64,000 nt of DNA. Origin: Clostridia bacterium (GTDB lineage: Bacteria > Bacillota > Clostridia > TANB77 > CAG-508). The stretch covers positions 22,904 through 86,903 of the forward strand of contig CAAEUE010000014.1 in the NCBI GenBank assembly GCA_900759015.1, given 5' to 3'. The notes below the pieces were generated by a model. The model did no database searches. It was not told the origin of the DNA and was given only the letters and a program-made list of their open reading frames with translations. Positions 2,900-64,000 of this stretch are shown here, in pieces (the first letter of the stretch is position 1; every line of letters begins with the position of its first letter). The translations under genes and the position numbers were made by a program.

Positions 2900-2952
2900 G
2901 GGATTTAAGGAACGTCCCCAAATCCCTCCTAGAAACATGCCAAAATCCCTAT
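2900..2952. repeat. GGGACG-loop palindromic intergenic repeat (one full copy plus a half copy)
   Basis: gggatttaaggaacgtccccaaatccc, then ccaaaatccctattttt. Same family as at 4885, 14450, 21196, 26307, 33862 and 45079. Confidence 0.7.
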
Positions 2953-4574: not shown

Positions 4575-4800
4575 CAAACAAAAATCGTCCTTATATAAAA
4601 ATATAAGGACGAATATAATCCGCGGTGCCACCTTAAGTTATTATAAAAATAATACACTCAATTAGTAGGGTAACCGCCTAACTTACGGTTTAGTTTTCAC
4701 TAAAAACATCTAAGAGTAGATTCGCATATAAATTTTATTTACTTACACCACCCGTAAACTCTCTTAAAAAATTAAATATGTTACTATTCTCTTATCAAAC
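4575..4800 (-). promoter_or_regulatory. T-box leader (probable Ser specifier) controlling the DUF1653-serS operon
   Basis: On the minus strand there is an AGAGAG stem I motif, a candidate specifier AAUCUAC (UCU=Ser), the T-box core AACUUAAGGUGGCACCGCGG (plus strand 4621-4640) and then a terminator hairpin CGUCCUUAUAU/AUAUAAGGACG with a U-run (4578-4612). Confidence 0.75.
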
Positions 4801-4884
4801 GTTTATATTAATATGTAACACATTTTAACATAATATGTATGAATATTCAATAAAAATTGTAAAAAATTATTATATGAATTTGAT

Positions 4885-4912
4885 GGGGATTTAGGGACGT
4901 TGTTTAAATCCC
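4885..4912. repeat. GGGACG-loop palindromic repeat
   Basis: ggggatttagggacgttgtttaaatccc, immediately upstream of the promoter of the 4986 ORF. Confidence 0.7.
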
Positions 4913-4921
4913 TATTGGATA

Positions 4922-4957
4922 CTTGGAAAATTATGTTAAGTATGGTATAATAAAATG
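4922..4957 (+). promoter_or_regulatory. sigma-A-like promoter of the GC-rich islet
   Basis: TTGGAA, 17-nt spacer, TGgTATAAT (extended -10). Confidence 0.5.
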
Positions 4958-4985: not shown

Positions 4986-5336
4986 ATGAGAGAGTCAAGG
5001 AAAAATAGCGAGAAGCTATTCTTACTGAAGGTATGCTTACCTACAGTGTATGAGGAAATAGGAGATGATGGAGTCCAAGCAATAGAACAGGGCTGGGCTA
5101 AAGAACAGGATTATAGATTTATAAATGATCTTGTTCAAAAGTATGTAGCAAAAGCTACAAAAGAAGTAATTTCGTATGAGGGCAGTATGAAGGAGAAGAT
5201 AGCATTAATCAAAACCTTTAACTACTTCTTATATGCGTATATTGAGAGAAAAAGCCCAAAAACGCTGGAAGAACTTGAGGAGTTTGTTAAAGAATACTAT
5301 AGCAATGTTGGAAAAGCAGTCAAATTAGGAGGTTAA
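4986..5336 (+). CDS. hypothetical protein, 116 aa, on a higher-GC islet
   Basis: RBS GAAGGAGG. GC is visibly higher than in flanking DNA. No recognisable motif. Confidence 0.55.
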   Translation: MRESRKNSEKLFLLKVCLPTVYEEIGDDGVQAIEQGWAKEQDYRFINDLVQKYVAKATKEVISYEGSMKEKIALIKTFNYFLYAYIERKSPKTLEELEEFVKEYYSNVGKAVKLGG

Positions 5337-5340
5337 GGTT

Positions 5341-5916
5341 ATGTTCAACAAAATCGACAAGATGTCACGCAAAGATTTGGAGGAAGCAATACGTGAGTAT
5401 AAGGATTTCTCCAAGTATAGTCGGAAAGATCTGGAGAAGGAATTAAGAGTTCTTCTTCCAGATATTAATTTGAACGAATTTTCTGACCAGGAGTTGGAAG
5501 ATTTGCTAAGAAGCAATTATACATTCGAGGACTATAGCACCGAAGAGCTTCGGGAAGAAGCAAGGAGACATGAACGCTTCGAAGAGTGGACCAGAGAGGA
5601 GCTCGAAGAAGATTATGAACAGTTAGAGCAGCCACAATCAAAGGTTGAACGATATAAGACTATAAGATGGATTCTTATAGCAGTGCTCTGTGCTTTTTTA
5701 GGATACTACTATGGAAGCATGAATACAAAGCTTGAATATCTCGAACAGAGGACCGAGCAACTGCAGCAGGAGCTTACTGTGATGGAACAGGAAAATAATC
5801 TGTTAGAAGACAGAGTTGATACTCTGTCAGATATTATAGATTTGATAATAATCTATGTAACGTCTGACGAGCTTCCGGGAGCAGAAAATCCGGGTACATC
5901 AGCACAAATCATCTAA
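5341..5916 (+). CDS. hypothetical acidic coiled-coil protein with one TM helix, 191 aa, on the higher-GC islet
   Basis: RBS GGAGG 6 nt upstream. Glu/Arg-rich N-terminal half, a TM segment IRWILIAVLCAFLGYYYG and a C-terminal leucine-heptad region. Confidence 0.55.
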   Translation: MFNKIDKMSRKDLEEAIREYKDFSKYSRKDLEKELRVLLPDINLNEFSDQELEDLLRSNYTFEDYSTEELREEARRHERFEEWTREELEEDYEQLEQPQSKVERYKTIRWILIAVLCAFLGYYYGSMNTKLEYLEQRTEQLQQELTVMEQENNLLEDRVDTLSDIIDLIIIYVTSDELPGAENPGTSAQII

Positions 5917-5940
5917 AGAACCAAAACTTCACATCTTTTT

Positions 5941-5960
5941 CCCCTGGCGAAAGCCAGGGG
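5941..5960 (+). terminator. GC-rich GNRA-tetraloop hairpin (CCCCTGGC-GAAA-GCCAGGGG) ending the islet
   Basis: Perfect 8-bp G/C stem with a GAAA loop, atypical for this AT-rich genome. A weak T-tract follows. Confidence 0.5.
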
Positions 5961-5995
5961 CATTTCCATTTTAGAGAATAAAATTTAAGAAAAAA

Positions 5996-6035
5996 CGAAA
6001 TTTTGTTTGACAAACAAAAAATCATATGATAGTAT
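5996..6035 (+). promoter_or_regulatory. lexA promoter with an overlapping degenerate Cheo/LexA box
   Basis: CGAAATTTTGTTTG (12/14 to CGAACnnnnGTTCG) overlaps TTGACA (6007-6012). A 17-nt spacer then TAGTAT (6030-6035). Confidence 0.5.
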
Positions 6036-6064
6036 GTAAAAAAATAAAGTGGAGGCGTGAACAA

Positions 6065-6706
6065 GTGAAAAAAGATAAAAGTGATTTAAATAAAAGAGAG
6101 GTAGCAATCTTAAACTTTATATCAAAACAAATAAAAGCAAACCAATATCCACCATCAGTAAGAGAAATTTGTAAAGCTGTAGGACTAAATTCAACAGCAA
6201 CAGTACATGGATATTTAGAGAAATTAGAGCAAAAAGGTTATATAAGAAAAGAATCTCAAAAAGGAAGAGCATTAAGAGTTGTTAATGAAGATGATGTTAT
6301 AAGAAAACCAAAAGATTTATATTCTGGTAAAGAATTAGTAGATGTACCAGTTGTAGGAAAAATAACTGCAGGTGCACCAATTTTAGCAGTAGAAAATATA
6401 ACAGATACTTTCCCAATTCCTTTAGACTTCGTAGGAAATTCAGAAAGCTTTATGCTAACTGTTAGAGGAGAAAGTATGATAGAAGCAGGTATTTTAGATG
6501 GTGACTATATATTAGTAAAACAACAAAATACTGCAGAAAATGGTGAAATTGTTGTAGCTTTAATAGATGACGAAGCAACAGTAAAAACATTCTATAAAGA
6601 AAAAGATTATATAAGATTACAACCAGAGAATCATACAATGGCTCCAATAATTGTTCCAGATTGTAAAATACTTGGTAAAGTAGCCGGCGTATTTAGAAAA
6701 ATGTAG
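6065..6706 (+). CDS. lexA: LexA repressor
   Basis: Winged-helix N-terminus, S24 peptidase C-terminus with Ala-Gly cleavage site (GKITAGAP), Ser (RGESM) and Lys ([12 protein letters not shown]). GTG start sits 9 nt after GGAGG. The ORF-track ATG at 6026 precedes the promoter -10. Confidence 0.9.
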
Positions 6707-10994: not shown

Positions 10995-11747
10995 ATGAAA
11001 GCTTTAGTTACAGGTGCATCATCAGGAATAGGTGAAGAAATAGCTAAAGAATTAAGTAAAAAAGGATATGATATAATTCTTGTAGCTAGAAACGAAGAAA
11101 AATTAAAAGAAGTTGCCTCAAAGATAAAAACCAATACCAGAATAATAACTATGGATTTATCTAATAAAGAAAATTGTGAAAAGCTATATGAAGAAACAAA
11201 AAATGAAGACATAGATATCTTAATAAATAATGCAGGTTTTGGTGTTCACGGAAAATTTTGTGATACAGATTTAGATAAAGAAGTGCAAATGATAGAAACA
11301 AATATAACTGCAGTTCATATTTTAATGAAATTATTTTTAAAAGATATGATAAAGAAAAATAGTGGATATATTTTGAATGTTGCTTCTATGGCAGCTTTTG
11401 GACCAGGTCCATTAATGAGTGCATATTATGCTTCAAAAGCATATGTTTATAGATTATCACAAGGAGTAAAAACAGAACTTAAAAAGAATAATTCAAAGGT
11501 TAAAATTTCGGTATTATGTCCAGGACCTGTAAGGACAAATTTTAATAAAGTAGCGGGAGTAGATTTTGCAGCACCATCATTAAGTAGTGAATATGTTGCA
11601 AAATATGCAGTAAAGAAAATGCTAAAAAATAAATTTACAATAGTTCCTGGTACTTTTATGAAAATAACTAGATTTTTCGAGAAAATAACTCCACATAATT
11701 TAGTAAGCAATGTTTCATATTTTGTAAATTACCGTAAAGATAAATGA
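10995..11747 (+). CDS. short-chain dehydrogenase/reductase (SDR)
   Basis: TGASSGIG Rossmann motif, NNAG and the YxxxK catalytic pair (YYASKAY). RBS AGGAGG before the ATG at 10995. Confidence 0.85.
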   Translation: MKALVTGASSGIGEEIAKELSKKGYDIILVARNEEKLKEVASKIKTNTRIITMDLSNKENCEKLYEETKNEDIDILINNAGFGVHGKFCDTDLDKEVQMIETNITAVHILMKLFLKDMIKKNSGYILNVASMAAFGPGPLMSAYYASKAYVYRLSQGVKTELKKNNSKVKISVLCPGPVRTNFNKVAGVDFAAPSLSSEYVAKYAVKKMLKNKFTIVPGTFMKITRFFEKITPHNLVSNVSYFVNYRKDK

Positions 11748-11773
11748 ACTTTAGGGACGGGGTTAAAAGTTCA
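11747..11773. repeat. GGGACG-loop palindromic repeat (GAACTTT/AAAGTTC stem variant)
   Basis: gaactttagggacggggttaaaagttc. Near-identical copies at 33925 and 57750. Confidence 0.7.
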
Positions 11774-12904: not shown

Positions 12905-14404
12905 ATGATAAGTTCAAAAGATGGAATAATAGGTTTTGCAATAGGGGATGCAATGGGAGTTCCAGTAGAATTTACCAACAGGGAAAAACTAATGAGAAAT
13001 CCTATAACTTCAATGGAAGGCTTTATGAGCCATAATGTTCCAAAGGGGACTTGGTCAGATGATACATCTATGACAATCGCCACAATGGATTCAATAATTA
13101 ACTCTAATGGAGATATTATAGCAAATGATATGGCAAATAGATTTTTAGAGTGGATGGAAAAGGGAGAATATACACCTGGTGGAAAAATTGTTGATATAGA
13201 TAGGACAACTTTAAGGGCACTAGGTAAATATAAAACAACAAGAAGAAGTGCTGTAAATTGTGGATGTACAAGTAATACAGATAATGGTAATGGTTCATTA
13301 ATGAGAATGTTACCAATAGTGTATTATTCATATTTAAATTGGCTAGAGCAAGATAAAATTTTAAAATTAGTTGCTGGTATATCATCAATTACACATGCAA
13401 ATGAGCTAGTAATTATGGGTTGTTATATGTATGTTAATTATGCCATTGAATTATTAAATACTAATAACAGAAAGGCAGCATATTCTAAAATTCAAAATTT
13501 AGATTATTCGATGTTTTCTATGCCAACAATAAGAGCGTATACTAGAATTTTAGATCATGAAATTTACCATTATGGTATAGACGAAATAAAGTCATCAAGT
13601 TATATAGTAGATACTTTAGAAGCTATTTTATGGGTACTTATAAATACAGATACATATAATCAAGCAATAATTGGAGCTATCAATTTGGGTAGTGATACAG
13701 ATACAATTGCAGCATGTACAGGAGGTTTAGCTGGAATTATTTATGGTATAAAAAGTATTAATTCAGATTGGAAAATTGATTTGCGTAAATATGCTGAGCT
13801 TATAGAACTTTGTGAAAAGTTTGATGAAATATTATATAAATTAAATGGAAAAGAAATTAATAGTAACTCTATAAATAAAAATGATGTATTAAGAAGAATA
13901 GAAATTGTAAATGAAGATATAACTGTAGTTCCAGCAGATGCGTTAGTTTGTGCCAATACATCTGGTAATTTAGGTAGAGGTGGAGAAGGCACTATATTTT
14001 CTAGAGCTGGTATAGAGTTAGAAAACAAATGTAAAGAATTTGATGAATTAAGTAGAGGACAAGCTAAAGTAACAAGAGCATATAAAATAGATACAAAGTA
14101 TATTATTCATACAGTAGTACCAAAGTGGTATGATGAGAGTGAAACAAATCAGAATGAGATACTTGAAGAATGCTATAAAAATATTTTTAAAATTTCAGCA
14201 GATTATGATATTAAAAGTATAGCAATTCCTACTTTAGGAATTGGTGCTTGTAGTGCGCCAGTAGATGTTGCAGTTAAAATTGCAATTGATGGTATAATAA
14301 ATAACTTCTTTAGAAATCCTGATATAGATAAAATTTACATAGTTTGCAATGATTCTAGAATACAAAGAACATATATAGAATATTTAAACAGTTTATTAGA
14401 TTAA
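12905..14404 (+). CDS. fusion protein: ADP-ribosylglycohydrolase domain (N-terminal) with macro domain (C-terminal)
   Basis: N-terminus IGFAIGDAMGVPVEF...GTWSDDTSM...GSDTDTIAACTGGLAG matches the ARH/DraG family. The C-terminus VVPADALVCANTSGNLGRGGEGTIFSRAG...IAIPTLGIGACSAP is macro-domain-like. Confidence 0.8.
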   Translation: MISSKDGIIGFAIGDAMGVPVEFTNREKLMRNPITSMEGFMSHNVPKGTWSDDTSMTIATMDSIINSNGDIIANDMANRFLEWMEKGEYTPGGKIVDIDRTTLRALGKYKTTRRSAVNCGCTSNTDNGNGSLMRMLPIVYYSYLNWLEQDKILKLVAGISSITHANELVIMGCYMYVNYAIELLNTNNRKAAYSKIQNLDYSMFSMPTIRAYTRILDHEIYHYGIDEIKSSSYIVDTLEAILWVLINTDTYNQAIIGAINLGSDTDTIAACTGGLAGIIYGIKSINSDWKIDLRKYAELIELCEKFDEILYKLNGKEINSNSINKNDVLRRIEIVNEDITVVPADALVCANTSGNLGRGGEGTIFSRAGIELENKCKEFDELSRGQAKVTRAYKIDTKYIIHTVVPKWYDESETNQNEILEECYKNIFKISADYDIKSIAIPTLGIGACSAPVDVAVKIAIDGIINNFFRNPDIDKIYIVCNDSRIQRTYIEYLNSLLD

Positions 14405-14446
14405 AAAACTTGGTAGTAGATGTTTTTTCTACTGCCAAGTTTTTTG
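14403..14446 (+). terminator. rho-independent terminator
   Basis: acttggtagtaga / tctactgccaagt stem then TTTTTT. Confidence 0.75.
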
Positions 14447-14449
14447 TGC

Positions 14450-14570
14450 ATCGGGAACAAGGGACGTTGCTAAAATCCCTATTTCTATAAAATAGGGATT
14501 TTAGCGGTTTATATGAAAACAAAAAAAGCAAATAGGGAAAAAAGGAACGTCCCAAAATCCCTACAAAAAT
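14450..14570. repeat. cluster of three GGGACG-loop palindromic repeats
   Basis: gggaacaagggacgttgctaaaatccc, tagggattttagc and agggaaaaaaggaacgtcccaaaatccc, in a convergent intergenic region. Confidence 0.7.
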
Positions 14571-14571
14571 C

Positions 14572-15777
14572 CTAATATTTTACAATATCATTATATGTTT
14601 CTATTGCATAACTATCTGTCATACCAGAAATATATGTAATAATAGCTGTTTGATAGTCTTTAATATTATTCATATCATATAAAATTTTATTTTTTAAATG
14701 AGTTCTATCAGTTTCTATATTCCAATAACAAGAAATCCATTTTATAAAAGTATCTATTACTTTAGTATAAAAAGGTTTAATACTGTTTAATTTTTCTAAA
14801 GTATTCATACCATCATAACATTCATTTAAAGTATTAAATATTTCGTTTAATACAAGACTAAAATATCTTTCTGAAGGTTTCATACATTTGTGCTTATAGA
14901 TATATTTGTAATTAAATTGTTTTAATCTTTTTATTTTTTCAAATGTAGTTTCAGAAAATTTTAAACCTTCTTCTATAGAGGAATTTATACATAAATCAGC
15001 GATTAAATCACCTATAATGTTAGTATTGTTTAGATTTGCAGATTTAGGAAGAGCTAACAAATTATATAATTCGTCTAAATTACTATTTAATATTCCCATA
15101 GATATTGCATCTTCTATATCTCTACCCAAATATGAAATTTTATCAGAAATTTTTACAACACAGGCTTCCCAAGTATATGGAGCATATTGGTTAAGATTTA
15201 TATAATCTTTTTCTAAATTGATAAATTCACTTCTAGGTTTTAAAGAAATTTCATCAATTTCACCACAGTGAGATATAATACCATCTCTTACTGCATATGT
15301 TAAGTTTAGATTTTTTTCTTCATTATTAACATTTGTTAGTAATTCTATATTATCAACAAAATTTAAACCATTTCTTTCATGCCAAAAAGATTCTAAACCA
15401 TTTTCCATACAGATTTTATTTAAAATTTGTTCACCTTTATGTCCAAAAGGGCTATGACCAATATCGTGTGATATAGAAATAGCTCTTGTTAAAGTGGTAT
15501 TTAAACCTAATGCTTTTGCAATGGTATAACTTGTTGCATCAACATTATTTACATGTTCAATACGAGTACAAATATGATCATTTTTTGGTAAAAAGAATAC
15601 CTGTGTTTTATGCTTTAATCTTCTATAAGCATTACAATATATAATTCTGTCATAATCTCTCTCGAAATCAGAGCGTACATCATTTTCTTTTTTATATAAT
15701 TCATCTTCTCGTGAAATTAAATTACTCCAATTTGGATTAGATGGAGTAGCAGAAACACTACTAAATTTAAAATCCAT
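14572..15777 (-). CDS. dGTP triphosphohydrolase-like HD-domain protein
   Basis: Dgt-family N-terminus (RDYDRIIYCNAYRRLKHKTQVF), HD motif HDIGHSPFGH and conserved C-terminal helices. Confidence 0.8.
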   Translation of the reverse strand: MDFKFSSVSATPSNPNWSNLISREDELYKKENDVRSDFERDYDRIIYCNAYRRLKHKTQVFFLPKNDHICTRIEHVNNVDATSYTIAKALGLNTTLTRAISISHDIGHSPFGHKGEQILNKICMENGLESFWHERNGLNFVDNIELLTNVNNEEKNLNLTYAVRDGIISHCGEIDEISLKPRSEFINLEKDYINLNQYAPYTWEACVVKISDKISYLGRDIEDAISMGILNSNLDELYNLLALPKSANLNNTNIIGDLIADLCINSSIEEGLKFSETTFEKIKRLKQFNYKYIYKHKCMKPSERYFSLVLNEIFNTLNECYDGMNTLEKLNSIKPFYTKVIDTFIKWISCYWNIETDRTHLKNKILYDMNNIKDYQTAIITYISGMTDSYAIETYNDIVKY

Positions 15778-15907: not shown

Positions 15908-16270
15908 GTGAATAAAAAGAATATTAGAAAAAAAATAATTATAACACTTATTGGATTTATTGCTGTTGTTATATTGGTAACAATGTATATAAATACTTTT
16001 GGAATACCTTATCCAAAAGTAATAAAACAAGTAGTAGCAAATCAATTATTTGGAGATAATTCGTGTCAATGTCCTCCAGCTATTATAGCCGGTCAAGCTT
16101 TAACAGAGTGGAGATGTATTATATGTAAGAGAGCAGACATACATCCTAACACAGCTGTTCCAGTTTTGTGTAAGAATTGTGCTAATGCGACTAATAGATG
16201 TGAACAATGTGGGGGTATTAAAGATTTAGATGTCCAAAATGGAAAAGAATATATTAAAGGAGATATATGA
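15908..16270 (+). CDS. small Cys-rich membrane-anchored protein (120 aa)
   Basis: GTG start after AAGGGGGA. N-terminal TM helix. Eight Cys in CxC/CxxC arrangements, so a likely Zn-ribbon ectodomain. Confidence 0.5.
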   Translation: MNKKNIRKKIIITLIGFIAVVILVTMYINTFGIPYPKVIKQVVANQLFGDNSCQCPPAIIAGQALTEWRCIICKRADIHPNTAVPVLCKNCANATNRCEQCGGIKDLDVQNGKEYIKGDI

Positions 16271-16281
16271 TACACTATGTA

Positions 16282-16330
16282 GTGAGTGTGCTAATGCAAC
16301 TAATAGATGTGATATATGTAGGGGATAAAA
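16282..16330 (+). repeat. partial tandem duplication of the 3' coding end of the 15908 gene
   Basis: CSECANATNRCDICRG* is encoded just after the stop and is near-identical to the CKNCANATNRCEQCGG block at the gene's C-terminus. At DNA level tgtgctaatgc[ga]actaatagatgtga is repeated. Confidence 0.6.
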
Positions 16331-21195: not shown

Positions 21196-21318
21196 TAGGG
21201 ATTTTAGGGCGTCCTGAGAAAAAAGAAATTTCGGGATTTGGGAACGTTCCTCAAATCCCTTTTTTGGGGCGCATCAAAAAAATATGAGGACGTTCTTCAA
21301 ATCCAGATTTTTTGAATG
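21196..21318. repeat. cluster of GGGACG-loop palindromic repeats (3-4 units)
   Basis: tagggattttagggcgtcctg, cgggatttgggaacgttcctcaaatccc, ggggcgcatc...gaggacgttcttcaaatcc. Confidence 0.7.
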
Positions 21319-21377
21319 TATAAAGTGGAATTAAATTAATACATTAGGTATACATAAGTTTGCAAAGAAAAATAAAA

Positions 21378-21410
21378 TATGCTAAAATTTATCTGTAGCA
21401 AAGTTGAAGT
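21378..21410 (+). promoter_or_regulatory. promoter of the 21456 gene (TTGCAA-17-TAAAAT with TGC extension)
   Basis: ttgcaaagaaaaataaaatatgctaaaat. Near-identical architecture upstream of the 22822 gene. Confidence 0.45.
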
Positions 21411-21455
21411 TAGTGTAAGACTCATCAAATGTAATGAGCATCAGAAAGGAACAGT

Positions 21456-21971
21456 ATGGAGAAAAAAGGAGAATTAAAAAATTGCAAAATATTCAACAAG
21501 AAAGGACGGGTTTTAGGTAGGCTACAAACTGAAGAAATAATGCCTATTATAGTTGTAGGCAAGAATGAGTCGGAAGATATAATTTATAGGGAAGGATTAT
21601 ATTTTCCAAAAACTAGAATCTTTCAAACACGATTTTCAGATGAAGACGAGTTCTTAAAAGAAGAGTATACAATCTCATCATTAGCTAAAATTGAACCATT
21701 AAATTTTGGTATTACGAGTCTGAAAAAATTTACTTTTTATTCTGCAGTTGGTGAAGAAATTGAAGAAGCATTTGTTGATTGGGCAAGACTAGTTTACTAT
21801 GTAATGAAGCATCCAGAAGAAAAAGAAAAGATTATTAGAATAGCTGGAGTATTATTAGAACCATGTTCACCAATTTTTAAAATCCATGTGAAGCTGGAAA
21901 ATGTAAAAGACAAAGGTTTTATATATCGAGAGCATGAATTTTATGAATTATCATCAAAGTATGATGAGTAA
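21456..21971 (+). CDS. hypothetical protein, 171 aa; N-terminal LKNCKIF..GR motif shared with the 22822 gene; higher-GC islet
   Basis: ORF with elevated GC and its own promoter. Paralogous N-terminal ~50 aa block. Confidence 0.55.
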   Translation: MEKKGELKNCKIFNKKGRVLGRLQTEEIMPIIVVGKNESEDIIYREGLYFPKTRIFQTRFSDEDEFLKEEYTISSLAKIEPLNFGITSLKKFTFYSAVGEEIEEAFVDWARLVYYVMKHPEEKEKIIRIAGVLLEPCSPIFKIHVKLENVKDKGFIYREHEFYELSSKYDE

Positions 21972-22009
21972 TAGTAACGTAAAAACCAATTTTAAATTGT
22001 GGAGGTATT

Positions 22010-22597
22010 ATGAGGCTATTTATTAATAAAGGAATATGCAAGCGGAAATGGAATGGTAATGTAAGTGTTCGTCAAAAAGATGGAATAGTTACATTACGTA
22101 TTCCAGATTATAACAAAGAGACCAACAGAGAACCATATGTGGAATTTGTAATTCCAAATGTAAAAAGAAAAATGCTAAAAACAAATCGATGGATTTATAA
22201 TTTGGTCTTGAAAGAAATTACAGAAAACCGTATAGTTTTTGAGGAGGAATATGATCCATGTACTGGTGAGATTTATGCCATTGTAAGGTCAACAGAAGCT
22301 GTACCGGATGATGTTTTTATTCCAAAAGCCAAAAAGAATAAGGTAAAGGTAATAAGGCGACTTCGATTTGTAGATGGAGAATGTGACCTTGGTGACTTTT
22401 TGTCCAATGTTTATTTTATAAGAATAAAATTGGACAGAAAAGAGAAGTTACCATTATACTTAACTTATGAGGATTCAAAGAACCTTCGGAAAGCAATAGT
22501 ATTTGCAAGAAATGCAGAAGGAATGTGGAATGCCAATATAGAGCTAAAAAAAGTCAGCAATACAGAAGGCAAATATATATCGCTTTCTAAAATTTAA
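22010..22597 (+). CDS. hypothetical basic protein, 195 aa, higher-GC islet
   Basis: RBS GGAGG 7 nt upstream. No recognisable motif. Confidence 0.55.
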   Translation: MRLFINKGICKRKWNGNVSVRQKDGIVTLRIPDYNKETNREPYVEFVIPNVKRKMLKTNRWIYNLVLKEITENRIVFEEEYDPCTGEIYAIVRSTEAVPDDVFIPKAKKNKVKVIRRLRFVDGECDLGDFLSNVYFIRIKLDRKEKLPLYLTYEDSKNLRKAIVFARNAEGMWNANIELKKVSNTEGKYISLSKI

Positions 22598-22739
22598 TAT
22601 TGTTTCAAAAAGAGTAGGAGGACATTTTTATTATGATGTTCTTCTATTCTTTTTAGTTGAAATAAAGCATAAAATATATTTAATTAATATGATATTACAA
22701 TTCATGAATTATTCAATATTTGAAATTAAAGTAAATATG

Positions 22740-26306: not shown

Positions 26307-26408
26307 AGGGAAAAAAGGACCGTCCCCGAATCCCTGGAAACCTCCCAAATCCCTGGAAACCTCCCAAATCCCTGGAAACGTCCCCAAACCCTTGGAACGT
26401 CCCAAAAA
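26307..26408. repeat. GGGACG-family repeat followed by 4 tandem ~19-bp units (aatccctggaaacctccca)
   Basis: agggaaaaaaggaccgtccccgaatccc then four contiguous units of 19, 19, 20 and 19 bp. There are no spacers, so this is not a CRISPR. Confidence 0.75.
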
Positions 26409-30383: not shown

Positions 30384-30424
30384 AGATGCACATAAAAAAA
30401 GACAAAATAAGGACAACACAGTTA

Positions 30425-30640
30425 TAAATTAGTCTTTAAGAGAGCTAGATGTATGCTGAAATTCTAGTAAGATAAAATATAATTGTTATCACCTTATATG
30501 TTGCGAAACTGAACTAATAGTAAGTTTTGACGTATATTCTGCGTTAAAGAAATTAGAGAGAATAACGTAAGTTATTAAATTAGGTGGTACCGCGGAATTA
30601 TGCCCTTTTCGTCCTAAACAGGATGAAAAGGGCTTTTTGA
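30425..30640 (+). promoter_or_regulatory. T-box leader (Ile specifier candidate AUU/AUC) of ileS
   Basis: AAGAGAG stem I, a GAAAUUCUAG loop and the T-box core AAAUUAGGUGGUACCGCGG (30577-30595). The terminator is GCCCUUUUCGUCC...GGAUGAAAAGGGC then UUUUU (30602-30638). Confidence 0.8.
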
Positions 30641-33861: not shown

Positions 33862-33947
33862 ATTTGGGGACGGTCCTCGCAGGGATTTGGGGACGTTCCT
33901 TAAATCCCTTTTTTGGACTTTAGGGACGGAGCTTAAAGTTCACTGGG
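33862..33947. repeat. cluster of GGGACG-loop palindromic repeats (3 units including a GAACTTT-stem variant)
   Basis: tttggggacggtcctcgcaggg, gggatttggggacgttccttaaatccc and gactttagggacggagcttaaagttcac. Confidence 0.7.
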
Positions 33948-35271: not shown

Positions 35272-35320
35272 ATTAATCACCAAAAATATTGTATCAAAAA
35301 TAGATATAAAAATCATATAA

Positions 35321-35600
35321 ATTTATTGTAAAAAAATGCTATTTTTATATAATATTCTTAGTTTGTAATAGAAGGAATAAAAAATAGCAAATTCAAAATT
35401 AATACAAAAGACACAGTAAAACAACGATTACGGATTATTTAAGATATACTATTCCGTATACAAATTTATATAGATTATGTGGAACTGCAGATAGCACGCC
35501 TACAGGCAAGAAAAAAGCAGAAACAATGTATAGGGATTTAGTAGAGTATTAAAAAAATGGGTAATCAAAATATAAATTTATATGGAAAATTGTCATAATA
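35321..35600 (+). pseudogene. decayed duplicate of the promoter and 5' ~230 bp of the 36222 P-loop kinase gene
   Basis: Aligns base-for-base with 36160-36455 (about 85% identity by eye). The ATG is ATA here, there is a ~15-nt deletion and an early TAA. Confidence 0.65.
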
Positions 35601-36031: not shown

Positions 36032-36221
36032 AGTAACTGTTAACCACGTGGCCGAAAAATATACCAGCTTTATTGCTGGTTTTTTTCGTTATATTCAACC
36101 AAAATTAGACTATTAAAAATTTATAAATATTGATTAATAAGTCTATAAAATTTATTAAATTTATTGTAAAAAAAATAACGTTTTTATATAATAAACGAAG
36201 ATAAATAAGGAGGAATAAAAA

Positions 36222-36797
36222 ATGGCAAATTCAAAATTAATAGTAGTAGAAGGGCCACAAGGTGCAGGAAAAACAACAATTACAGATTATTTAAGATATA
36301 CAATTCCATATACAAATTTGTATAGATTATGTGGGACTGCAGATAGTTCGCCAGCAGGCAAGAAAAAAGCAGAAACAATGTATAGGGATTTAGTGGAATA
36401 TTTAAAAAAATTAGGAAATCAAAGTATAAATTTAGTATTTGATAGAACATTTTTTACAGAAGAAAATTATTGTAGATTAAAATATAAAGAGTACTCATTT
36501 ACAGATGTTTATGAAGAATTACTAGCTGATTTTGCTAAATTAGACTTTGAAATTTACTATGTTACACTATATTTAGAAGATGAAAGTTTATATGCTCAAA
36601 GACTAAAAAGGGAGAATAAAGCAGTGCCCAAATACGCTAAATTTGAAGCAGAGAAAAGCATAAACCAACAAAAAGTATATTTAGAAATGTCTGATGAAAT
36701 AGAAAAGAAATATCCTAATATACACTGTTTAAAAATAGAAAATAGTAAGGATTTAGAATTAACCAAGAAAGAATTAAAAGAAAAAATAGGCTTTTAA
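36222..36797 (+). CDS. P-loop NTPase / nucleoside(-monophosphate) kinase-like protein (191 aa)
   Basis: Walker A GPQGAGKTT at residues 11-19 and an aspartate in FDRTF. Size and layout resemble dNK/dNMP kinase-like proteins. Confidence 0.65.
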   Translation: MANSKLIVVEGPQGAGKTTITDYLRYTIPYTNLYRLCGTADSSPAGKKKAETMYRDLVEYLKKLGNQSINLVFDRTFFTEENYCRLKYKEYSFTDVYEELLADFAKLDFEIYYVTLYLEDESLYAQRLKRENKAVPKYAKFEAEKSINQQKVYLEMSDEIEKKYPNIHCLKIENSKDLELTKKELKEKIGF

Positions 36798-45078: not shown

Positions 45079-45110
45079 CCGGGATTTTGGGGACGTTCCT
45101 TAAATCCCGA
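45079..45110. repeat. GGGACG-loop palindromic repeat
   Basis: ccgggattttggggacgttccttaaatcccg. Confidence 0.75.
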
Positions 45111-48705: not shown

Positions 48706-48794
48706 GCAGATGTGGCGGAACTGGCAGACGCACAGGACTTAAAATCCTGCGAGGGTTAAACCTCGTGCCGGTTCGATTCCGGCCATCTGCACCA
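48706..48794 (+). tRNA. tRNA-Leu (anticodon UAA), type II with long variable arm, CCA encoded
   Basis: Acceptor gcagatg/catctgc, anticodon stem cagga/tcctg with loop cuUAAaa, variable hairpin cgagggttaaacctcg and T-arm ccggttcgattccgg. 89 nt. Confidence 0.9.
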
Positions 48795-48845
48795 AAAAAG
48801 TAATACCAAGAAGTTAAACACTTCTTTTGGTATTACTTTTTTTTT
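48795..48845 (+). terminator. terminator after tRNA-Leu
   Basis: aagtaataccaagaagtt...aacttcttggtattactt then a T9 run. Confidence 0.75.
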
Positions 48846-48876
48846 ATAATTAATATATAAAGGAGAGTGACTTCTT

Positions 48877-49149
48877 ATGATGTATCCATATGTCAAATAT
48901 TCCGATGGTACCGAAGTTACATTTTCAAGTATATATATCGATAATGACAAAGAATGTATTGATGTACATTTCGAAAGACCTACAAAAAATGGCTTTGATT
49001 CTGTTAGAATAAAATTGCCTACTTATGAAGTAACAGTTTGGGAAGGTAAATATAATGCAGAAGAAATAGAATTTTTTAAGCAAGTTGCAAAGAATAATTC
49101 GGATTTGTTTTATAAGTATGCAAAAGAGGGAGGTTTTAAATTTGCCTAG
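48877..49149 (+). CDS. hypothetical protein (90 aa)
   Basis: RBS AAGGAGAG. No motif recognised. Confidence 0.45.
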   Translation: MMYPYVKYSDGTEVTFSSIYIDNDKECIDVHFERPTKNGFDSVRIKLPTYEVTVWEGKYNAEEIEFFKQVAKNNSDLFYKYAKEGGFKFA

Positions 49150-49408
49150 TATTTTTGAAGTCTTCGGATAAAAAATATATTTTGGGTCAAATGAAAATAA
49201 TGAACCTATTCATGTTCATATTTCAAAAGGAAGTCCAACTCAAAATTCTACTAAAGTTTGGTTAACCCAAACAGGTGGATGCATATTAGCTAATAATAAA
49301 AGTAAAATTCCAGATAGTGATTTAAATAAATTATTAAGTATAATTTCTAGACATTACTTTTTAATTATTTCAAAGTGGAAAGAATTTTATAAAATTAATG
49401 ATATATAA
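49142..49408 (+). pseudogene. DUF4160-family gene with an in-frame TAA at codon 10
   Basis: TTG-start MPSIFEVFG*KIYFGSNENNEPIHVHISKG... matches the DUF4160 N-terminal pattern (..YFYSNE.NEPPHIHV..). There is no ATG downstream of the stop in frame. Confidence 0.55.
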
Positions 49409-49648
49409 GGATATTAAATTTTATTGCTAAAATGATTATAAACCTACCATTAAAAGGTAGTTTTTTTTGTGTGTCAAAATCAGGAGGAAAAGACAGACTC
49501 GCTTATTGGATAGTCTTAAAAGTGAAGTTCACTAAACAATAGAGAAAATATTGAAAAAGTAGATAATTAAAAATATATATGATAATATTTTAGTATAGAA
49601 TATTAATAAAAAGAAATTGATCAAACGATGATTGATAATGGAGAAAGT

Positions 49649-51532
49649 ATGGATTTTTTGATTGAAGAAGTAGTAAAAGAACTAAAAAAAATAAATAATG
49701 TAAAATTAACACAAAAAGACAAGAATAAAATTTATAAAAATTTTCCTATTCCAAAAGAACATAAAATTTTATGGGCAGATACTATTGGAAAAAGTATGAA
49801 ATATGGAATGGTCATTACTGATATAGGGCTATTTTTAAGAACAAATCCTACTATTATTAAGAAAAATAATAAAGAAGTAAAAAAAGAAGAAAAGGTAGCC
49901 AATAACTACTATTATTTTAAATGGGAATATTTTAATATAGAAGATTTTAAATTAAAAAGAAACTCTGAAAATGAATATGATGTTATATTTAATAGAAGAA
50001 GAATCCTAGAGATAAATGGTAAATCTAATTTTTTTATATGCTATGAAGATATTTATAATAAATCAATAAAAGAAGCAACAATGTCAGCAGAAAATATTTT
50101 TGCAGATTTAGAAGCGGTTATCCCTGAAAATTTTGCAAGAGTCAATAGCAAGCATGGTCATGGAGAGATGGCAGAAGAAGCACTAACCATATTAGATAAA
50201 TTAAAAGGGAATGAAGCAGAAGTAGTAGGCAGAACAAATCAAAAGAATGGTGCAGATCGTATTGTAAATGGTTTAGAGATTCAAACTAAATATTATAGTT
50301 CTGGAAAAGGATGTATAAATGCGTGTTTTGACAAGACAACAGGACAATTTAGGTATCAAAAATTAAATGGTAAGCCAATGCTAATAGAAGTACCAAAAGA
50401 TAAGTATATAGAGGCTGTTAATGAATTTAGAAAAAAGATTCTAGAGAACAAGGTACCAGGAGTAACAAATCCAGATGATGCCTCAAAATATGTTAAAAAA
50501 GGACAATTAACATATAAACAGGCTCTTAATCTTTGTAAACCAGGAACTATAGAATCCTTAAAATATGATGTTACAACTGGAGCAATAAATTGTTCTTTTG
50601 CTCTAGGAATAAGTTTTTTAACAACTTTCATTTTTGCATATTCAAAAAATAATAATAAAATAGAAGCAATGCAATATGCAATTGCTTCTGGAGTTCAAGT
50701 ATTTGGGTTATCATTTTTTGCACATATACTTACACAACAAGTTGCTAGGACAGAATTAACAAAACAACTTATACCATTAAGTAATTATATTGCACAAAAA
50801 ATGGGATATAAAGCAGTGCAAACTATTGTAAATTCAATTCGTACAATGGCTGGAAAAACAGCAATTTCTGGCTCAGCTGCTATGAAACAATTATCAAAGA
50901 TATTTAGAAATAATGTAGTTTCTTCTATCATTACTTTGGCAGTATTTTCTGTCCCTGATACATATAACTTATTAAAAAAGAGGTTATCAGCTGCACAATA
51001 TACAAAAAATATGCTTTCGTTAGTTGGAACGATTGCAACCGCTGGTTCTGGCACTGTAGCAGCATCTGTTGCTGCCACCAAAATAGGTGCAGTAACAGGA
51101 ACTACAATTGCTCCTGGAATAGGAACTGCTATTGGTATTGCAGGTGGACTTGCTGGAGGAGTAGCTGGTGGTGTAGCTATTAAAGCATTAGGAGATTATA
51201 TTAAGGAAGATGATACAGTAATTTTGTCGAGACTATTTAATGCTGTTGTAGAAAATCTAATATATGAATATATGTTATCAGAAAGTGAAATTAATGAACT
51301 AATAAAAGAATTAAACAATATAACAGCAAAAGAATTCAAAGAATTATTTACTGTAGTTATGGCTATAAGAAAACAAGAAAAAATTATTGAAGATTATTTA
51401 AGACCTTATTTTGAAAAGATAATACGAAAGAGAGCAGTTTTACCAGAACCAAAGCCAGAAGATATTATTGGATTTTTTGAAAAGTTCGAGAATGATAACA
51501 ACCTAAATAATGAAGAAAAGACCCCTAATTGA
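49649..51532 (+). CDS. large uncharacterised protein (627 aa): PH-like N-terminal domain, central globular domain, glycine-zipper multi-TM region, C-terminal helical tail
   Basis: RBS GGAGAAAG before the ATG at 49649. N-terminus KILWADTIGKSMKYGMVITDIGLFLR resembles bacterial PH domains. Residues ~330-530 carry 4-5 TM helices with GxxxG repeats (GIAGGLAGGVAGGVA). Confidence 0.6.
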   Translation: MDFLIEEVVKELKKINNVKLTQKDKNKIYKNFPIPKEHKILWADTIGKSMKYGMVITDIGLFLRTNPTIIKKNNKEVKKEEKVANNYYYFKWEYFNIEDFKLKRNSENEYDVIFNRRRILEINGKSNFFICYEDIYNKSIKEATMSAENIFADLEAVIPENFARVNSKHGHGEMAEEALTILDKLKGNEAEVVGRTNQKNGADRIVNGLEIQTKYYSSGKGCINACFDKTTGQFRYQKLNGKPMLIEVPKDKYIEAVNEFRKKILENKVPGVTNPDDASKYVKKGQLTYKQALNLCKPGTIESLKYDVTTGAINCSFALGISFLTTFIFAYSKNNNKIEAMQYAIASGVQVFGLSFFAHILTQQVARTELTKQLIPLSNYIAQKMGYKAVQTIVNSIRTMAGKTAISGSAAMKQLSKIFRNNVVSSIITLAVFSVPDTYNLLKKRLSAAQYTKNMLSLVGTIATAGSGTVAASVAATKIGAVTGTTIAPGIGTAIGIAGGLAGGVAGGVAIKALGDYIKEDDTVILSRLFNAVVENLIYEYMLSESEINELIKELNNITAKEFKELFTVVMAIRKQEKIIEDYLRPYFEKIIRKRAVLPEPKPEDIIGFFEKFENDNNLNNEEKTPN

Positions 51533-51557
51533 ATCAAATTTCAATTAGGGGTTTAAC

Positions 51558-52007
51558 TTACATTCCTAATTCTTTTAGTATTTGCTTATTCTGTTTTGTA
51601 GCAGGCCAAGAAATTGTAAAAAATAATATAAAAAATATAACAACTAAAACCAAACCAATAATTGTGCTATAACGCATTATAGCTAAAGACTCAAAAAGCG
51701 CTATTACAATAGCATAAATTTTTCTATAATTTTTTACAAGAATTTGTTTTTGTTCATCTGAAGCTTTTTCTTTAACTTTTTTAGCTAATAGAATATCTGG
51801 TTTAGCCAAACTGATTATTAAAATTATTATTAAAAATAAATCTAACACAATATTTCCTCCTTTATTAATTTTATTTAATATATCATAAGAAAATACCATA
51901 GACAATATTAATACAAAATAAGTAAGATTATTTGCTACTTTTTTGCTTTTTCTTAATAAATATGCTATAATAAAGTTTGAGAAACTCGTAGACTTTTTAC
52001 ATTGCAC
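51558..52007 (-). CDS. hypothetical 4-TM membrane protein (start uncertain)
   Basis: Hydrophobic helices. Convergent with the large protein. Confidence 0.4.
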   Translation of the reverse strand: MQCKKSTSFSNFIIAYLLRKSKKVANNLTYFVLILSMVFSYDILNKINKGGNIVLDLFLIIILIISLAKPDILLAKKVKEKASDEQKQILVKNYRKIYAIVIALFESLAIMRYSTIIGLVLVVIFFILFFTISWPATKQNKQILKELGM

Positions 52008-57749: not shown

Positions 57750-57776
57750 GAACTTTTAGGACGGAGCTTAAAGTTC
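57750..57776. repeat. GGGACG-loop palindromic repeat (GAACTTT stem variant)
   Basis: gaacttttaggacggagcttaaagttc. Confidence 0.7.
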
Positions 57777-57799
57777 AAAAGTTGCGAGAAAATTAGAAA

Positions 57800-57842
57800 A
57801 ATAAAGCCCCCTGTTACCAGAAAGGTAATGGGGGCTTCATTG
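57800..57842 (-). terminator. GC-rich terminator for the 57891 gene
   Basis: aagcccccat...gggggctt stem with a T-run on the minus strand. Confidence 0.6.
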
Positions 57843-57890
57843 GTTTTGCTAAATTAGCACTCGCCATCGGTGGTGGCTTAACATAAGAGT

Positions 57891-58661
57891 TTAAAATACA
57901 AAATAGACGATACTGTTTTTTTGGTCATAAGTAAGTGAAGTCACTTTAGTACAAGCAGTTTGATTTGCAAGATAATCCATATATTGATAGCTTGTAGCTA
58001 TATTAGACAAATATGAAGGATCTGCTAAAAATGCTTCATGGTCTTTGCTTATCTGAGCTAAGACCTTTAAAGCTTCTTCATCTGTAAACTTTTTTGTGAA
58101 ACATTTACAGATATTTTTAGGAAGCCCAGTAGAAGACATAAATAACTTTAATTTCCTTGTATATTCTGCTTTAGCAGTGGCAATATTTACCATAATATAC
58201 TTTCGGTTTTTCTTGTTATTTCCTTCAATACGAAGTTCCCACGTATCATCGATTTCATAGACCACGAGATGAGAACCATAATATTTTAAGTTAACGGTTT
58301 TATACTCCGTTCCAATTTGACTTACTACAAATTCTGTTGTTTCAACATCGTGAACAATTCGTTCTCTTAGAATTGCCATTTCTTTTGCAGCTTTTTCTTT
58401 AGATATAACCTGCGTTACATCTTCTGTTTTTTGATCCTTTAAATGTAAGCAGTGTCTGTGAAAAGCAATTAACGAACTTGAAGGAGATACTTCCTTTTCT
58501 TTTCTTATCTTGTCGCTTTTGGTAACAATGTAGATATCTTCTGGGTTAAGAATATTTACAAGATAATAGTAAACTTTGCCATTATCTTCTATTATATAAA
58601 TATCACCAGAAATTGAGCCTACATATTCTGACCGTCCTTTACCTAAAAATACTTTCTCCAT
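57891..58661 (-). CDS. hypothetical protein (256 aa), moderately elevated GC
   Basis: Long ORF with no motif recognised. Flanked by the repeat and the GC-rich terminator. Confidence 0.5.
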   Translation of the reverse strand: MEKVFLGKGRSEYVGSISGDIYIIEDNGKVYYYLVNILNPEDIYIVTKSDKIRKEKEVSPSSSLIAFHRHCLHLKDQKTEDVTQVISKEKAAKEMAILRERIVHDVETTEFVVSQIGTEYKTVNLKYYGSHLVVYEIDDTWELRIEGNNKKNRKYIMVNIATAKAEYTRKLKLFMSSTGLPKNICKCFTKKFTDEEALKVLAQISKDHEAFLADPSYLSNIATSYQYMDYLANQTACTKVTSLTYDQKNSIVYFVF

Positions 58662-58766
58662 AAAACCCCTTTCTAATCAATTGATTACCATAAATTAAAC
58701 AGTTGCTAAATTGCTTTATAGGTTGTATTATAATATGAATATATAATTTTAGTAAAGAGGTAGGAA

Positions 58767-62371: not shown

Positions 62372-62477
62372 GGCATTAAAAATGGGGGATATTTTCTTTT
62401 TGGAGGAGATATCCCCTCTATTTTTATATAAAATATGTTATAATATATAAGATTTTTGTTGAACAAGGAGGTAGCAT

Positions 62478-63140
62478 ATGAAAGTAATTAACATCAGAAA
62501 AAACGATTCATCAAGAGGGGCTCTTATACGGTTAGAGGGACTTCAAGGCGAAATCTGCGTAACATATTCAGACGGTGAATTAGAACTTTTACCACCACTA
62601 GATATGGATTTGCTAGAATTTGCAAAATTGATACAGCATTCTTTTGAGGGTAAAATTGATATTCTTCCGAAAGCAGAAGAATACTTTGAAGCAAAAATTT
62701 CATCTATATCATTCGTTTTTAAGGGCATAGGCATTACTGTAAATGCTGAAAATTCTAACTGGTATAATACGATTAAAGCGTATACAATTGGAAAGGAAAA
62801 AGCCCAATATCCAGACTCATTTATAGTTAAGCTGGATGAAGCAACAGAAATGTTTTATAAAAGCAAAGATGCACGTGAAGTATGGATGAATACTATAGGA
62901 TGTAAAAATTATGAGACCATATTAAATGTTGCTCGTAGATGGGCGAAATTGATGCAATTCTATATGAAAGAGGAGCATCGGAAACTGGAAGACATTGTAG
63001 AAGAGTCATATAAACAGGCAGTGCTCAATGAAGATTCTGAAACTACAAGATTACTTGCTACAGATGCATTAGTTTTGTGCTGGAAGTATGGTACTGAACT
63101 AAAAGAATATCTTTCGACTAAGAAAGATAGAACGGCCTAA
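62478..63140 (+). CDS. hypothetical protein (220 aa), about 40% GC
   Basis: RBS AAGGAGG 6 nt upstream. No recognisable motif. Confidence 0.55.
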   Translation: MKVINIRKNDSSRGALIRLEGLQGEICVTYSDGELELLPPLDMDLLEFAKLIQHSFEGKIDILPKAEEYFEAKISSISFVFKGIGITVNAENSNWYNTIKAYTIGKEKAQYPDSFIVKLDEATEMFYKSKDAREVWMNTIGCKNYETILNVARRWAKLMQFYMKEEHRKLEDIVEESYKQAVLNEDSETTRLLATDALVLCWKYGTELKEYLSTKKDRTA

Positions 63141-63157
63141 TGGCCGTTTTTTTATTG
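63133..63157 (+). terminator. terminator overlapping the stop of the 62478 gene
   Basis: acggcctaatggccgt then T7. Confidence 0.7.
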
Positions 63158-63163
63158 CGGTAG

Positions 63164-63203
63164 AAAAATCGAAAATTTTTCTGGAACAACAAGATTAAGC
63201 TAA
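63164..63203. repeat. copy of the GAAAAATCGA...ACAAGATTAAG element (right border of the islet)
   Basis: gaaaaatcgaaaatttttctggaacaacaagattaagcta, compared with 45125-45165. Confidence 0.6.
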
Positions 63204-63277
63204 TATATTCGTAAAAATTGTAAAGCTACTTTTATTATAAGAATAAAACGCTGATATATAAACGATTAAAATGATAT

Positions 63278-63895: not shown

Positions 63896-64000
63896 GAAAT
63901 AGGGACAAAGAAATATAGAATAGGGAGAAGCAAAATAGAAAAATGGGAAAATAGAGAAAAAGGGAAATAGGGAAATAGGGACGGTGTTAAAATCCCGAAT
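63896..64000. repeat. degenerate AATAGGGA tandem repeats ending in a GGGACG-family unit (tagggacggtgttaaaatccc); truncated by the window end
   Basis: gaaataggga...gaataggga...gggaaatagggaaataggga cggtgttaaaatccc. Confidence 0.6.

Follow-up and report, generated by a model that had tools for sequence, protein, structure and literature searches.

A GGGACG hairpin repeat of gut Clostridia, probably of the REP/RAYT type

Hairpin units in the window

We analyzed a 64,000-nt stretch of DNA from an uncultured member of the Clostridia (GenBank assembly GCA_900759015.1, contig CAAEUE010000014.1, positions 22,904 to 86,903 of the forward strand), hereafter called the window. Its G+C content is 27%, and its genes include ctsR-mcsA-mcsB-clpC and several for aminoacyl-tRNA synthetases; it also has two T-box leaders. 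The window also carries a dispersed family of short palindromic repeats built around GGGACG, one cluster of which lies behind clpC (21196-21318). We consider it likely that these repeats, the units, are repetitive extragenic palindromic (REP) elements of uncultured low-GC gut Clostridia, and that they form part of a system of the REP and REP-associated tyrosine transposase (RAYT) type that resembles the TIRYT class. We base this assignment to a REP family with RAYT substrates on the anatomy of the units, their placement, their doublets, the RAYT-like gene that they flank, the match of subtypes to clades, and vertical inheritance, which together define REP/RAYT behavior elsewhere (PMC2817692, PMC3116915, PMC5581495, PMC8266576).

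The unit is an imperfect palindrome of 27-28 nt with a 7-bp outer stem, and its consensus on the GGGACG strand is GGGATTT-R-GGGACG-KTCC-TW-AAATCCC (type A). A second form, type B, has the stem GAACTTT/AAAGTTC and is found in the window units at 11746 and 57750; the unit at 33915 is an intermediate GGACTTT form. The original prediction, made from the sequence of the window, had described a conserved loop on a variable stem. The variable stem was correct, and the change is compensatory (GGGATTT/AAATCCC vs. GAACTTT/AAAGTTC). The conservation also held, but not as that of a pure loop, since the bases concerned (G9, G10, G11, A12, C13, and G14) form the upper stem plus the apical loop. Half-units (GGGATTTGGGRASSTTYCC, without the 3' arm) adjoin some of the intact units, and at 26335-26400 they form a 19-nt tandem array.

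A covariance model was trained on ten units of the window and then run on all 64 kb. It returned 12 full units with scores of 33-40.5 bits, and the next distinct site scored 16 bits. All 12 intact units are intergenic. The core pattern RGGGACGKWS occurs nine times in the window, against 0.11 occurrences expected from shuffles. The units and the elements that accompany them are the following:

2900-2926 (-): intact unit in sense orientation, 40.5 bits, 30 nt past the serS stop codon
2927-2952: degenerate half-unit adjoining the unit at 2900-2926
4886-4912 (+): intact unit, 39.9 bits, in a divergent region, with the serS T-box leader on one side and the next gene's promoter on the other
11746-11772 (+): type B unit GAACTTTAGGGACGGGGTTAAAAGTTC, 34.8 bits, overlapping the TGA stop codon of a short-chain dehydrogenase/reductase (SDR) gene
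14453-14479 (+) and 14535-14561 (-): inverted doublet, 34.9 and 34.5 bits, with a 55-nt spacer, between convergent genes
21198-21230 (+): degenerate half-unit GGGATTTTAGGGCGTCCTGAG..., absent from other strains, whose alignment to the window breaks at 21204
21233-21259 (+): intact unit GGGATTTGGGAACGTTCCTCAAATCCC followed by TTTTTT, 37.1 bits, 42 nt past the clpC stop codon
21260-21305 (+): small hairpin TTTTTTGGGGCGCATCAAAAAA, then degenerate unit relic ATGAGGACGTTCTTCAAATCC, with a partial model match at 21282-21302 (14.5 bits)
26308-26334 (-): intact unit in a cluster that extends to 26400, 3' of asd
up to 26400 (-): about four tandem 19-nt half-units (GGGATTTGGGAGGTTTCCA), which precede the unit at 26308-26334 on that unit's own strand
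33862-33881 (+): half-unit, 3' of ileS
33882-33908 (+): intact unit followed by TTTTTT, 40.5 bits, 3' of ileS, called terminator-like
33915-33941 (+): B-like unit, GGACTTT...AAAGTTC, 35.8 bits, 3' of ileS
45081-45108 (+): intact 28-nt unit, 33 bits, 11 nt past a stop codon in a convergent spacer, tyrS being the opposite gene
57750-57776 (+): type B unit, 34.6 bits, 2 nt past the ddl stop codon
63940-63996 (+): GGGAAAT repeats, then an intact unit at 63970-63996, 36.1 bits, between copZ and copA

All ten loci named in the original prediction are real, with covariance-model units at each, and its unit counts needed revision at four of them. The clpC locus, credited with three or four units, has one intact unit (21233-21259) and three degenerate relics (21198-21230, 21260-21281, and 21282-21305). 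Two intact inverted units and a fragment, not three units, make up 14450-14570, and two intact units and one half-unit, again not three units, make up 33862-33947; 26307-26408 resolves into one intact unit and the half-unit array. The claim that units sit just behind stop codons or between convergent genes held for 11 of the 12, the exception being 4886-4912 in a divergent promoter region. The cluster at 63940 extends past the end of the window, and conspecific strains carry two more inverted units there (L139, 18838-18969).

The unit behind clpC has ten pairs and a T-run, which makes it terminator-like, and all conspecific strains have an orthologous unit. It is likely the terminator of the ctsR-mcsA-mcsB-clpC operon. 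The relics at 21260-21305 stand at the start of a strain-specific segment (21204-22706).

At the Rfam gathering threshold, a scan of the window gave no match at the units and reported two T-boxes and one tRNA. A literature search on the motif gave matches to unrelated primers and NF-kB sites only, and no description for this lineage was found; the statement that the family was not recognized by name was therefore fair. The T-box leaders lie at 4602-4807 (-), ahead of DUF1653-serS, and at 30396-30619 (+), ahead of ileS, and both operons end in a hairpin unit.

Spread, structure, and placement of the units

The window is 100% identical to contig CABRFR010000003.1 of GCA_902470255.1 across window positions 2364-22888, and about 96% identical to the metagenome-assembled genome (MAG) "uncultured Clostridium sp. 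UMGS1570". We scanned one genome per species with the exact type A pattern, so that all loci of relatives were ascertained through that pattern. The scan found more than 116 stretches in at least 45 species-level assemblies, all of them MAGs of uncultured Clostridia/Bacillota from the guts of human, mouse, chicken, rabbit, and other hosts. Clostridium sp. CAG:354 probably falls within the GTDB order TANB77. In 840 kb of matched loci the covariance model counted about 170 units (about 0.2 copies per kb), including type B and GGGATTT…TTTTCCC variants, neither of which the search pattern could select. Extrapolated to a 1.94-Mb conspecific contig, this density would correspond to about 360 copies per genome.

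In more distant species (L010, L033, L061, L077, L078, and others) a spacer of about 8 nt (TnnnnnnA) separates each full hairpin from a half-unit behind it, GGGATTnnGGGGACRGWCCTT. An alternative hairpin is possible there through pairing of the hairpin's 3' arm with the 5' part of this half-unit. In the species of the window, unlike the distant species, the half-units precede the hairpin.

Covariation was measured in an alignment that had been fitted to the model and therefore leans towards structure; in it, 89.8% of the cells were paired. Eight of the ten stem pairs had changed on both sides, with 47 such cells against 15.5 in shuffles, and the covariation score was 0.246, a value reached by none of 500 shuffles, against 0.135 in shuffles. 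The flanking positions ±1 and ±2, which lie outside both the pattern and the model, paired more often than in any of 1000 shuffles, and the pairings seen there were a…t, c…g, ata…tat, and atc…gat. Pair 10-26 is G·U in 80 of the 85 distinct sequences.

Wobble pairs make RNA of the GGGACG strand fold more stably than RNA of the complementary strand. For the GGGACG strand the mean folding energy is -11.2 kcal/mol, against -8.3 kcal/mol for the antisense strand, and it is the more stable RNA in 174 of 180 units; the folding energies of the units range from -9.6 to -15.3 kcal/mol. A T-tract follows 51 of the 117 units that stand in sense orientation 3' of a gene (44%), against a background of 11%, and the window units at 21233 and 33882 were called terminator-like.

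Genes in the loci of relatives were called simply as long open reading frames (ORFs), and 7 of 158 units fell inside one. Density was 3.6 units per kb in convergent spacers, 1.5 in co-directional spacers, and 0.8 in divergent spacers. Of 141 intergenic units, 100 were sense to the upstream gene, at a median distance of 12 nt from the stop codon, and in about ten cases the stop codon was the unit's own TAG or TGA. Most antisense units are the second member of an inverted doublet. Of the pairs of units no more than 150 nt apart, 19 were convergent, three tandem, and none divergent; six of the convergent doublets had spacers of 5-8 nt. Most units are singletons.

In a convergent spacer one of the two genes must be on the lagging strand, and there about 25 of 29 units were sense to the nearer gene (by manual count). 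Each of the three minus-strand units in the window stands behind a minus-strand gene, and GC skew is positive throughout. For these two reasons we conclude that orientation follows transcription and not replication.

The RAYT-like gene and comparison with known systems

Locus L019 has two units of an unusual variant, identical and inverted, and the ORF between them has HAHILI…YIHENPIKAG motifs. The encoded protein of 256 aa matches Pfam Y1_Tnp (PF01797) at 6e-11 and scores 66.7 and 75.5 bits with the NCBIfam model REP_Tyr_transpos, against 16-18 bits for IS200. It has about 570 homologues of about 256 aa. In an alignment of 36 of them, H61, H63, Y121, N125, and P126 are invariant; these comprise the HUH histidines and the YIHxNP tyrosine.

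A phmmer search of the PDB with the protein gave no match, and a family profile reached only E. coli TnpA-REP (4ER8). The profile alignment places the YIHxNP tyrosine on the first tyrosine of the DYIYINP motif of 4ER8, which we take to be the catalytic residue. An AlphaFold model with a mean predicted local distance difference test score (pLDDT) of 83 had 4ER8_A as its top PDB match in Foldseek (E = 4.7e-7, TM 0.67), ahead of the IS608 and ISDra2 transposases. The C-terminal segment of about 65 aa is conserved (…NKxIxxILGIGKNRI…) and predicted to be helical with a pLDDT of 80-92. Its profile matches are weak (sigma region 4 and Cro-type helix-turn-helix, E 0.2-0.4), and a Pfam scan of the C-terminal 100 aa or so returned only noise. 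The segment looks like a helix-turn-helix (HTH).

The arrangement of a unit, the gene, and an inverted unit is complete in seven loci (L116, L019, L117, L120, L128, L131, and L132) and partial in two (L005 and L074). The two flanking units share lineage-specific variants in each genome: GTTCTTT, GTACC, GGGGCTCT, or a type B stem. Perfect type B units flank the gene in the 42%-identical clade represented by L132; no second RAYT gene flanked by type B units was found in loci from the window's close relatives, and the link to type B comes from L132 alone. The neighborhood holB-PSP1-ferredoxin-RAYT is conserved among proteins that are 46-100% identical, which argues for vertical inheritance; the RAYT clade P0079 is at a different locus. 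Members of the P0006/P0123 RAYT cluster have longest contigs of 112,947 and 388,269 bp, the same lengths as those of the conspecific contigs behind L127 and L123, and on this ground the gene may also be present in the species of the window. The original prediction had raised the possibility of a cognate REP-associated tyrosine transposase, and this 256-aa Y1/HUH gene, flanked by inverted units in nine related contexts, is such a candidate. Downstream of the RAYT gene and a small companion ORF, next to a unit, some strains have convergent pyruvate:ferredoxin oxidoreductase (PFOR) genes and others a very large SpaA/MucBP surface-protein gene (L128-L130, 2826 onward, vs. L117, 3804 onward).

REP elements, bacterial interspersed mosaic elements (BIMEs), REPtrons, and REPINs have been described with their RAYTs in Enterobacteria, Pseudomonas, and Stenotrophomonas (Nunvar, 2010, PMC2817692; Bertels & Rainey, 2011, PMC3116915; Messing, 2012, PMC3479197; Corneloup, 2021, PMC8266576). 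Like them, the units are imperfect extragenic palindromes of 20-40 nt that are enriched 3' of genes and between convergent genes, and that occur as singles, inverted doublets, and clusters. In both systems a vertically inherited HUH/Y1 gene, here probably single-copy, lies between inverted copies, and distinct repeat subtypes pair with distinct RAYT clades; the solved fold closest to the 256-aa protein is that of E. coli TnpA-REP. The present system differs in its protein, about 100 aa longer through the C-terminal helical HTH-like domain, in its Gram-positive host with 27% GC, in its strong transcription-sense bias, and in its tandem arrays of 19-nt half-units.

The closest description is that of the TIRYT/TIRtron class, whose longer RAYT-like proteins are flanked by inverted repeats containing GGGGWSAS (Di Nocera, 2013, PMC3733652) and which has been equated with TnpA-REP subclass 2.1 (Quentin, 2018, PMC6006769). 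As in TIRYTs, the RAYT-like protein is longer than the classical ones; TIRYTs have a C-terminal HTH/DnaA_C-like domain, and the protein described here has a helical HTH-like segment. Some families of terminal inverted repeats (TIRs) in that class are also self-complementary, moderately abundant, and arranged in dimers or clusters. The downstream half-units of the relatives read GGGGACAG, GGGACACT, or GGGACAC and so resemble GGGGWSAS, whereas full units read GGGGACGK, with position 7 mostly G and not A. No REP-like sequences were reported near subclass 2.1 genes (Quentin, 2018, PMC6006769). In contrast, the repeat that flanks the gene described here is a compact hairpin, with about 0.2 copies per kb. 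The cited description includes no example from Firmicutes or Clostridia. Group 1 RAYTs have been noted in Clostridia without a description of repeats (Bertels et al.).

The CGTC-tagged REPs (Di Nocera, 2013) are likewise short palindromic extragenic repeats, and the antisense strand of the unit contains CGTC (CGTCCC). In those repeats, however, the tetranucleotide is an unpaired end tag and no dedicated transposase is known, whereas here it is apical and a RAYT-like gene is associated. The terminators formed by DNA uptake sequences (DUS) in Neisseria and uptake signal sequences (USS) in Pasteurellaceae are also short conserved motifs that the species of a family have in common, often as hairpins behind genes. 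In those systems the conserved motif supplies both stem arms, as inverted copies, and functions in DNA uptake; in the units the stem varies, the apex is conserved, and there is a link to a transposase gene. The system would be a REP/RAYT system new for low-GC gut Clostridia, with an apical motif, an HTH-like nuclease, a Gram-positive host, and a strong sense bias.

Strain variation, proposed mechanism, and rival explanations

We compared the structure of the window with 20 loci from strains that are 92-100% identical to it. Six of the 12 structural-variant sites abut a unit, and at three of these six the variable DNA begins 0-4 nt past the unit's 3' end. Where the window has its inverted doublet (14451-14573), five conspecific strains have instead a 778-bp segment with a 211-aa gene. 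Behind the clpC unit (21204-22706) there are three different alleles, one of which is a deletion directly after AAATCCCTAT. Two strains lack a 913-bp segment at 57779-58693, which holds a 256-aa gene (57891-58661) and starts 3 nt past the ddl unit. At 4919-4953, 7 nt from the unit at 4886-4912, a 445-bp insertion is found in other strains. The last two sites are changes in array copy number: the array at 26308-26400 differs from that of a 99.8%-identical strain, and two related strains have two extra half-units at the 45081-45108 locus. The 445-bp insert (L122, 2102-2548) is rich in G+C, contains a short ORF, and is bracketed by duplicated promoter-like TTGGAAA…TATAAT sequences.

Presence/absence polymorphism, which the original prediction had proposed to look for, is thus seen in array copy number and in the DNA next to units, not in single units. 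The idea that units act as insertion hotspots found support in the six abutting sites; the correlation with GC-richer islets, each of which was said to adjoin a unit, is weak. Among nine GC-rich blocks, the one at 5001-6101 is 115 nt from a unit and six are 0.7-5.7 kb away; two overlap a unit, possibly through the unit's own G+C content.

In the mechanism that we propose, a single-copy, vertically inherited 256-aa HUH/Y1 protein of the RAYT (TnpA-REP) kind would recognize the units as folded single-stranded DNA hairpins; the RAYT gene itself lies between two inverted units, a "REPtron/TIRtron" arrangement. The units would be cleaved and mobilized by this RAYT. Cleavage and strand transfer beside the hairpin would spread units slowly through the genome, and the same cleavage would generate inverted doublets and short half-unit arrays. 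It would also make the 3' edge of a unit a breakpoint at which neighboring DNA is lost or replaced. Copies would persist where they are harmless or useful, that is, behind stop codons and in the orientation with the more stable transcript hairpin. Units may also act at the RNA level, as terminators or mRNA stabilizers, and many retained copies could serve as intrinsic terminators or 3'-end protectors. The original prediction's reading of a REP-like, protein-recognized hairpin agrees with these results, and its terminator or RNA-stability idea is favored by sequence statistics (sense bias, hairpin stability, and the 44% T-tract frequency).

Several observations weigh against this interpretation. 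The RAYT-like scores are under the NCBIfam equivalog cut-off of 80 bits, and tblastn with several RAYT homologues found no RAYT gene in the window. Syntenic RAYT loci may have inherited their flanking units from a common ancestor, and the nine contexts do not equal nine independent events. The units have no regular 5' GTAG tag, and it is the GGGACG of the upper stem and apex that is invariant; their 5' flank is variable (ATA, AAA, ATC, ACA, and others), with TA before GGG in a minority and GTAG in a few, and they are therefore not GTAG REPs. In about 60 kb compared among conspecific strains, we found no single unit that had been cleanly gained or lost, and only changes in half-unit copy number and unit-adjacent replacements were seen. 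In co-directional spacers, with only four lagging-strand cases, the orientation bias is not fully separable from replication direction. As regards a terminator role, a clear T-tract follows only two or three of the 12 window units, and an ordinary terminator stands beside several unit-bearing genes (e.g., at 14404-14450, before the unit at 14453); the units are therefore not needed as terminators everywhere.

The strongest rival holds that the units are selected intrinsic terminators or 3'-UTR stabilizers, recognized for example by an RNA-binding protein or RNase, without any transposase, and that the RAYT neighborhood is coincidental. The sense bias at a median of 12 nt past stop codons, the more stable sense RNA hairpin, the T-tracts after 44% of sense 3' units, the two window units called terminators, and the stable unit positions among conspecific strains would all suit it. 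However, antisense units make up about 30% of those in co-directional spacers, inverted doublets separated by as little as 5-8 nt occur between co-directional genes, units stand beside ordinary terminators, and 56% of sense units have no T-tract. Nor would independent selection be expected to give near-identical 27-mers in at least 45 species, or unit pairs around the RAYT gene that share lineage-specific variants. We regard this rival as improbable.

Another possibility is that the units are miniature inverted-repeat transposable elements (MITEs) or palindrome-associated transposable elements (PATEs) of an ordinary insertion sequence (IS), mobilized in trans, for example by a 154-aa IS200/IS605 TnpA. 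A 154-aa Y1_Tnp gene of the IS200 type is indeed present in the strains of L143 (4993-5457) and L141 (20386 onward), and IS200/IS605 ends are also hairpins. Neither copy has a unit near it, however; this gene varies from strain to strain, in contrast to the units, whose conservation extends across species, and it is the 256-aa RAYT-like gene that the units flank. At 27 nt, with no internal sequence between terminal repeats, the unit is not MITE-like, and this origin is very unlikely. Least probable of all are double-stranded palindromic operators for a dimeric regulator or nucleoid-associated protein: the nearly palindromic center (GGAACGTTCC / GGACNGTCC) and the 19-20-bp period of the half-unit array, about two helical turns, would fit them, but divergent (promoter) spacers are poor in units, the conserved G·T wobble is asymmetric between the strands, and the covariation of the stem with sequence change (GGGATTT to GAACTTT) preserves pairing and not a recognition sequence.

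CRISPR repeats were dropped on account of irregular spacing and dispersed units. Sites of the Noc or parS type were dropped as well, since they have a different half-site and promoter regions are avoided by the units. The discarded ideas also include CsrA GGA-loop sites and attC sites.

REP/RAYT systems have been studied almost only in Proteobacteria, and the REP-type units described here offer a compact case from gut Clostridia in which the unit is clear-cut and comes with two types of stem. They would provide a candidate pair of substrate and enzyme for the longer, HTH-bearing clade of RAYT-like proteins, in which earlier surveys found no REPs. More tentatively, and with considerable doubt, we suggest that the units may be the first REPs of high copy number to be linked with the HTH-bearing clade of RAYTs (TIRYT/subclass 2.1), and that the system may be the first of its kind worked out in a Gram-positive lineage; in it, the nuclease would read the GGGACG apex and not a 5' tag, the host would have co-opted sense copies as general 3'-end hairpins, and nuclease action at the 3' edge would turn over strain-specific genes. 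If true, a domesticated element would both punctuate transcripts and seed variation in gene content in an uncultured gut clade. As markers of transcript ends and strain-variable breakpoints, the units can aid MAG annotation, assembly, strain typing, and comparison of gene content, and the covariance model built here can locate them.

Some other features of the window were also recorded. A tRNA-Leu(TAA) gene at 48706-48794 is followed directly by a segment (48796-51940) whose content and length vary between strains, with 3.1 kb here and 1.0-1.4 or 5.9 kb elsewhere; the version of one strain carries a 154-aa IS200-type gene together with a UPF0236 transposase. The site resembles an integration hotspot next to a tRNA gene, unconnected with the hairpin units. 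The segment at 62428-63231 is also strain-variable and contains a 220-aa gene (62478-63140) with a weak Tad4 match, beside a 91-aa paralogue; the nearest unit is 700 nt away. Upstream of ctsR, a small Cys-rich ORF (15908-16330) has 47-nt direct repeats (16169-16215 and 16278-16324) and strain indels at 16061-16276, with no unit nearby. Finally, a 140-nt duplication (35418-35557 and 36270-36409; also 35305-35354 and 36144-36193) has copies that are 91% identical and 852 nt apart. The copies, which have no Rfam match, surround two small genes without assigned function upstream of queA-tgt, and the second lies inside the ORF at 36222-36797.

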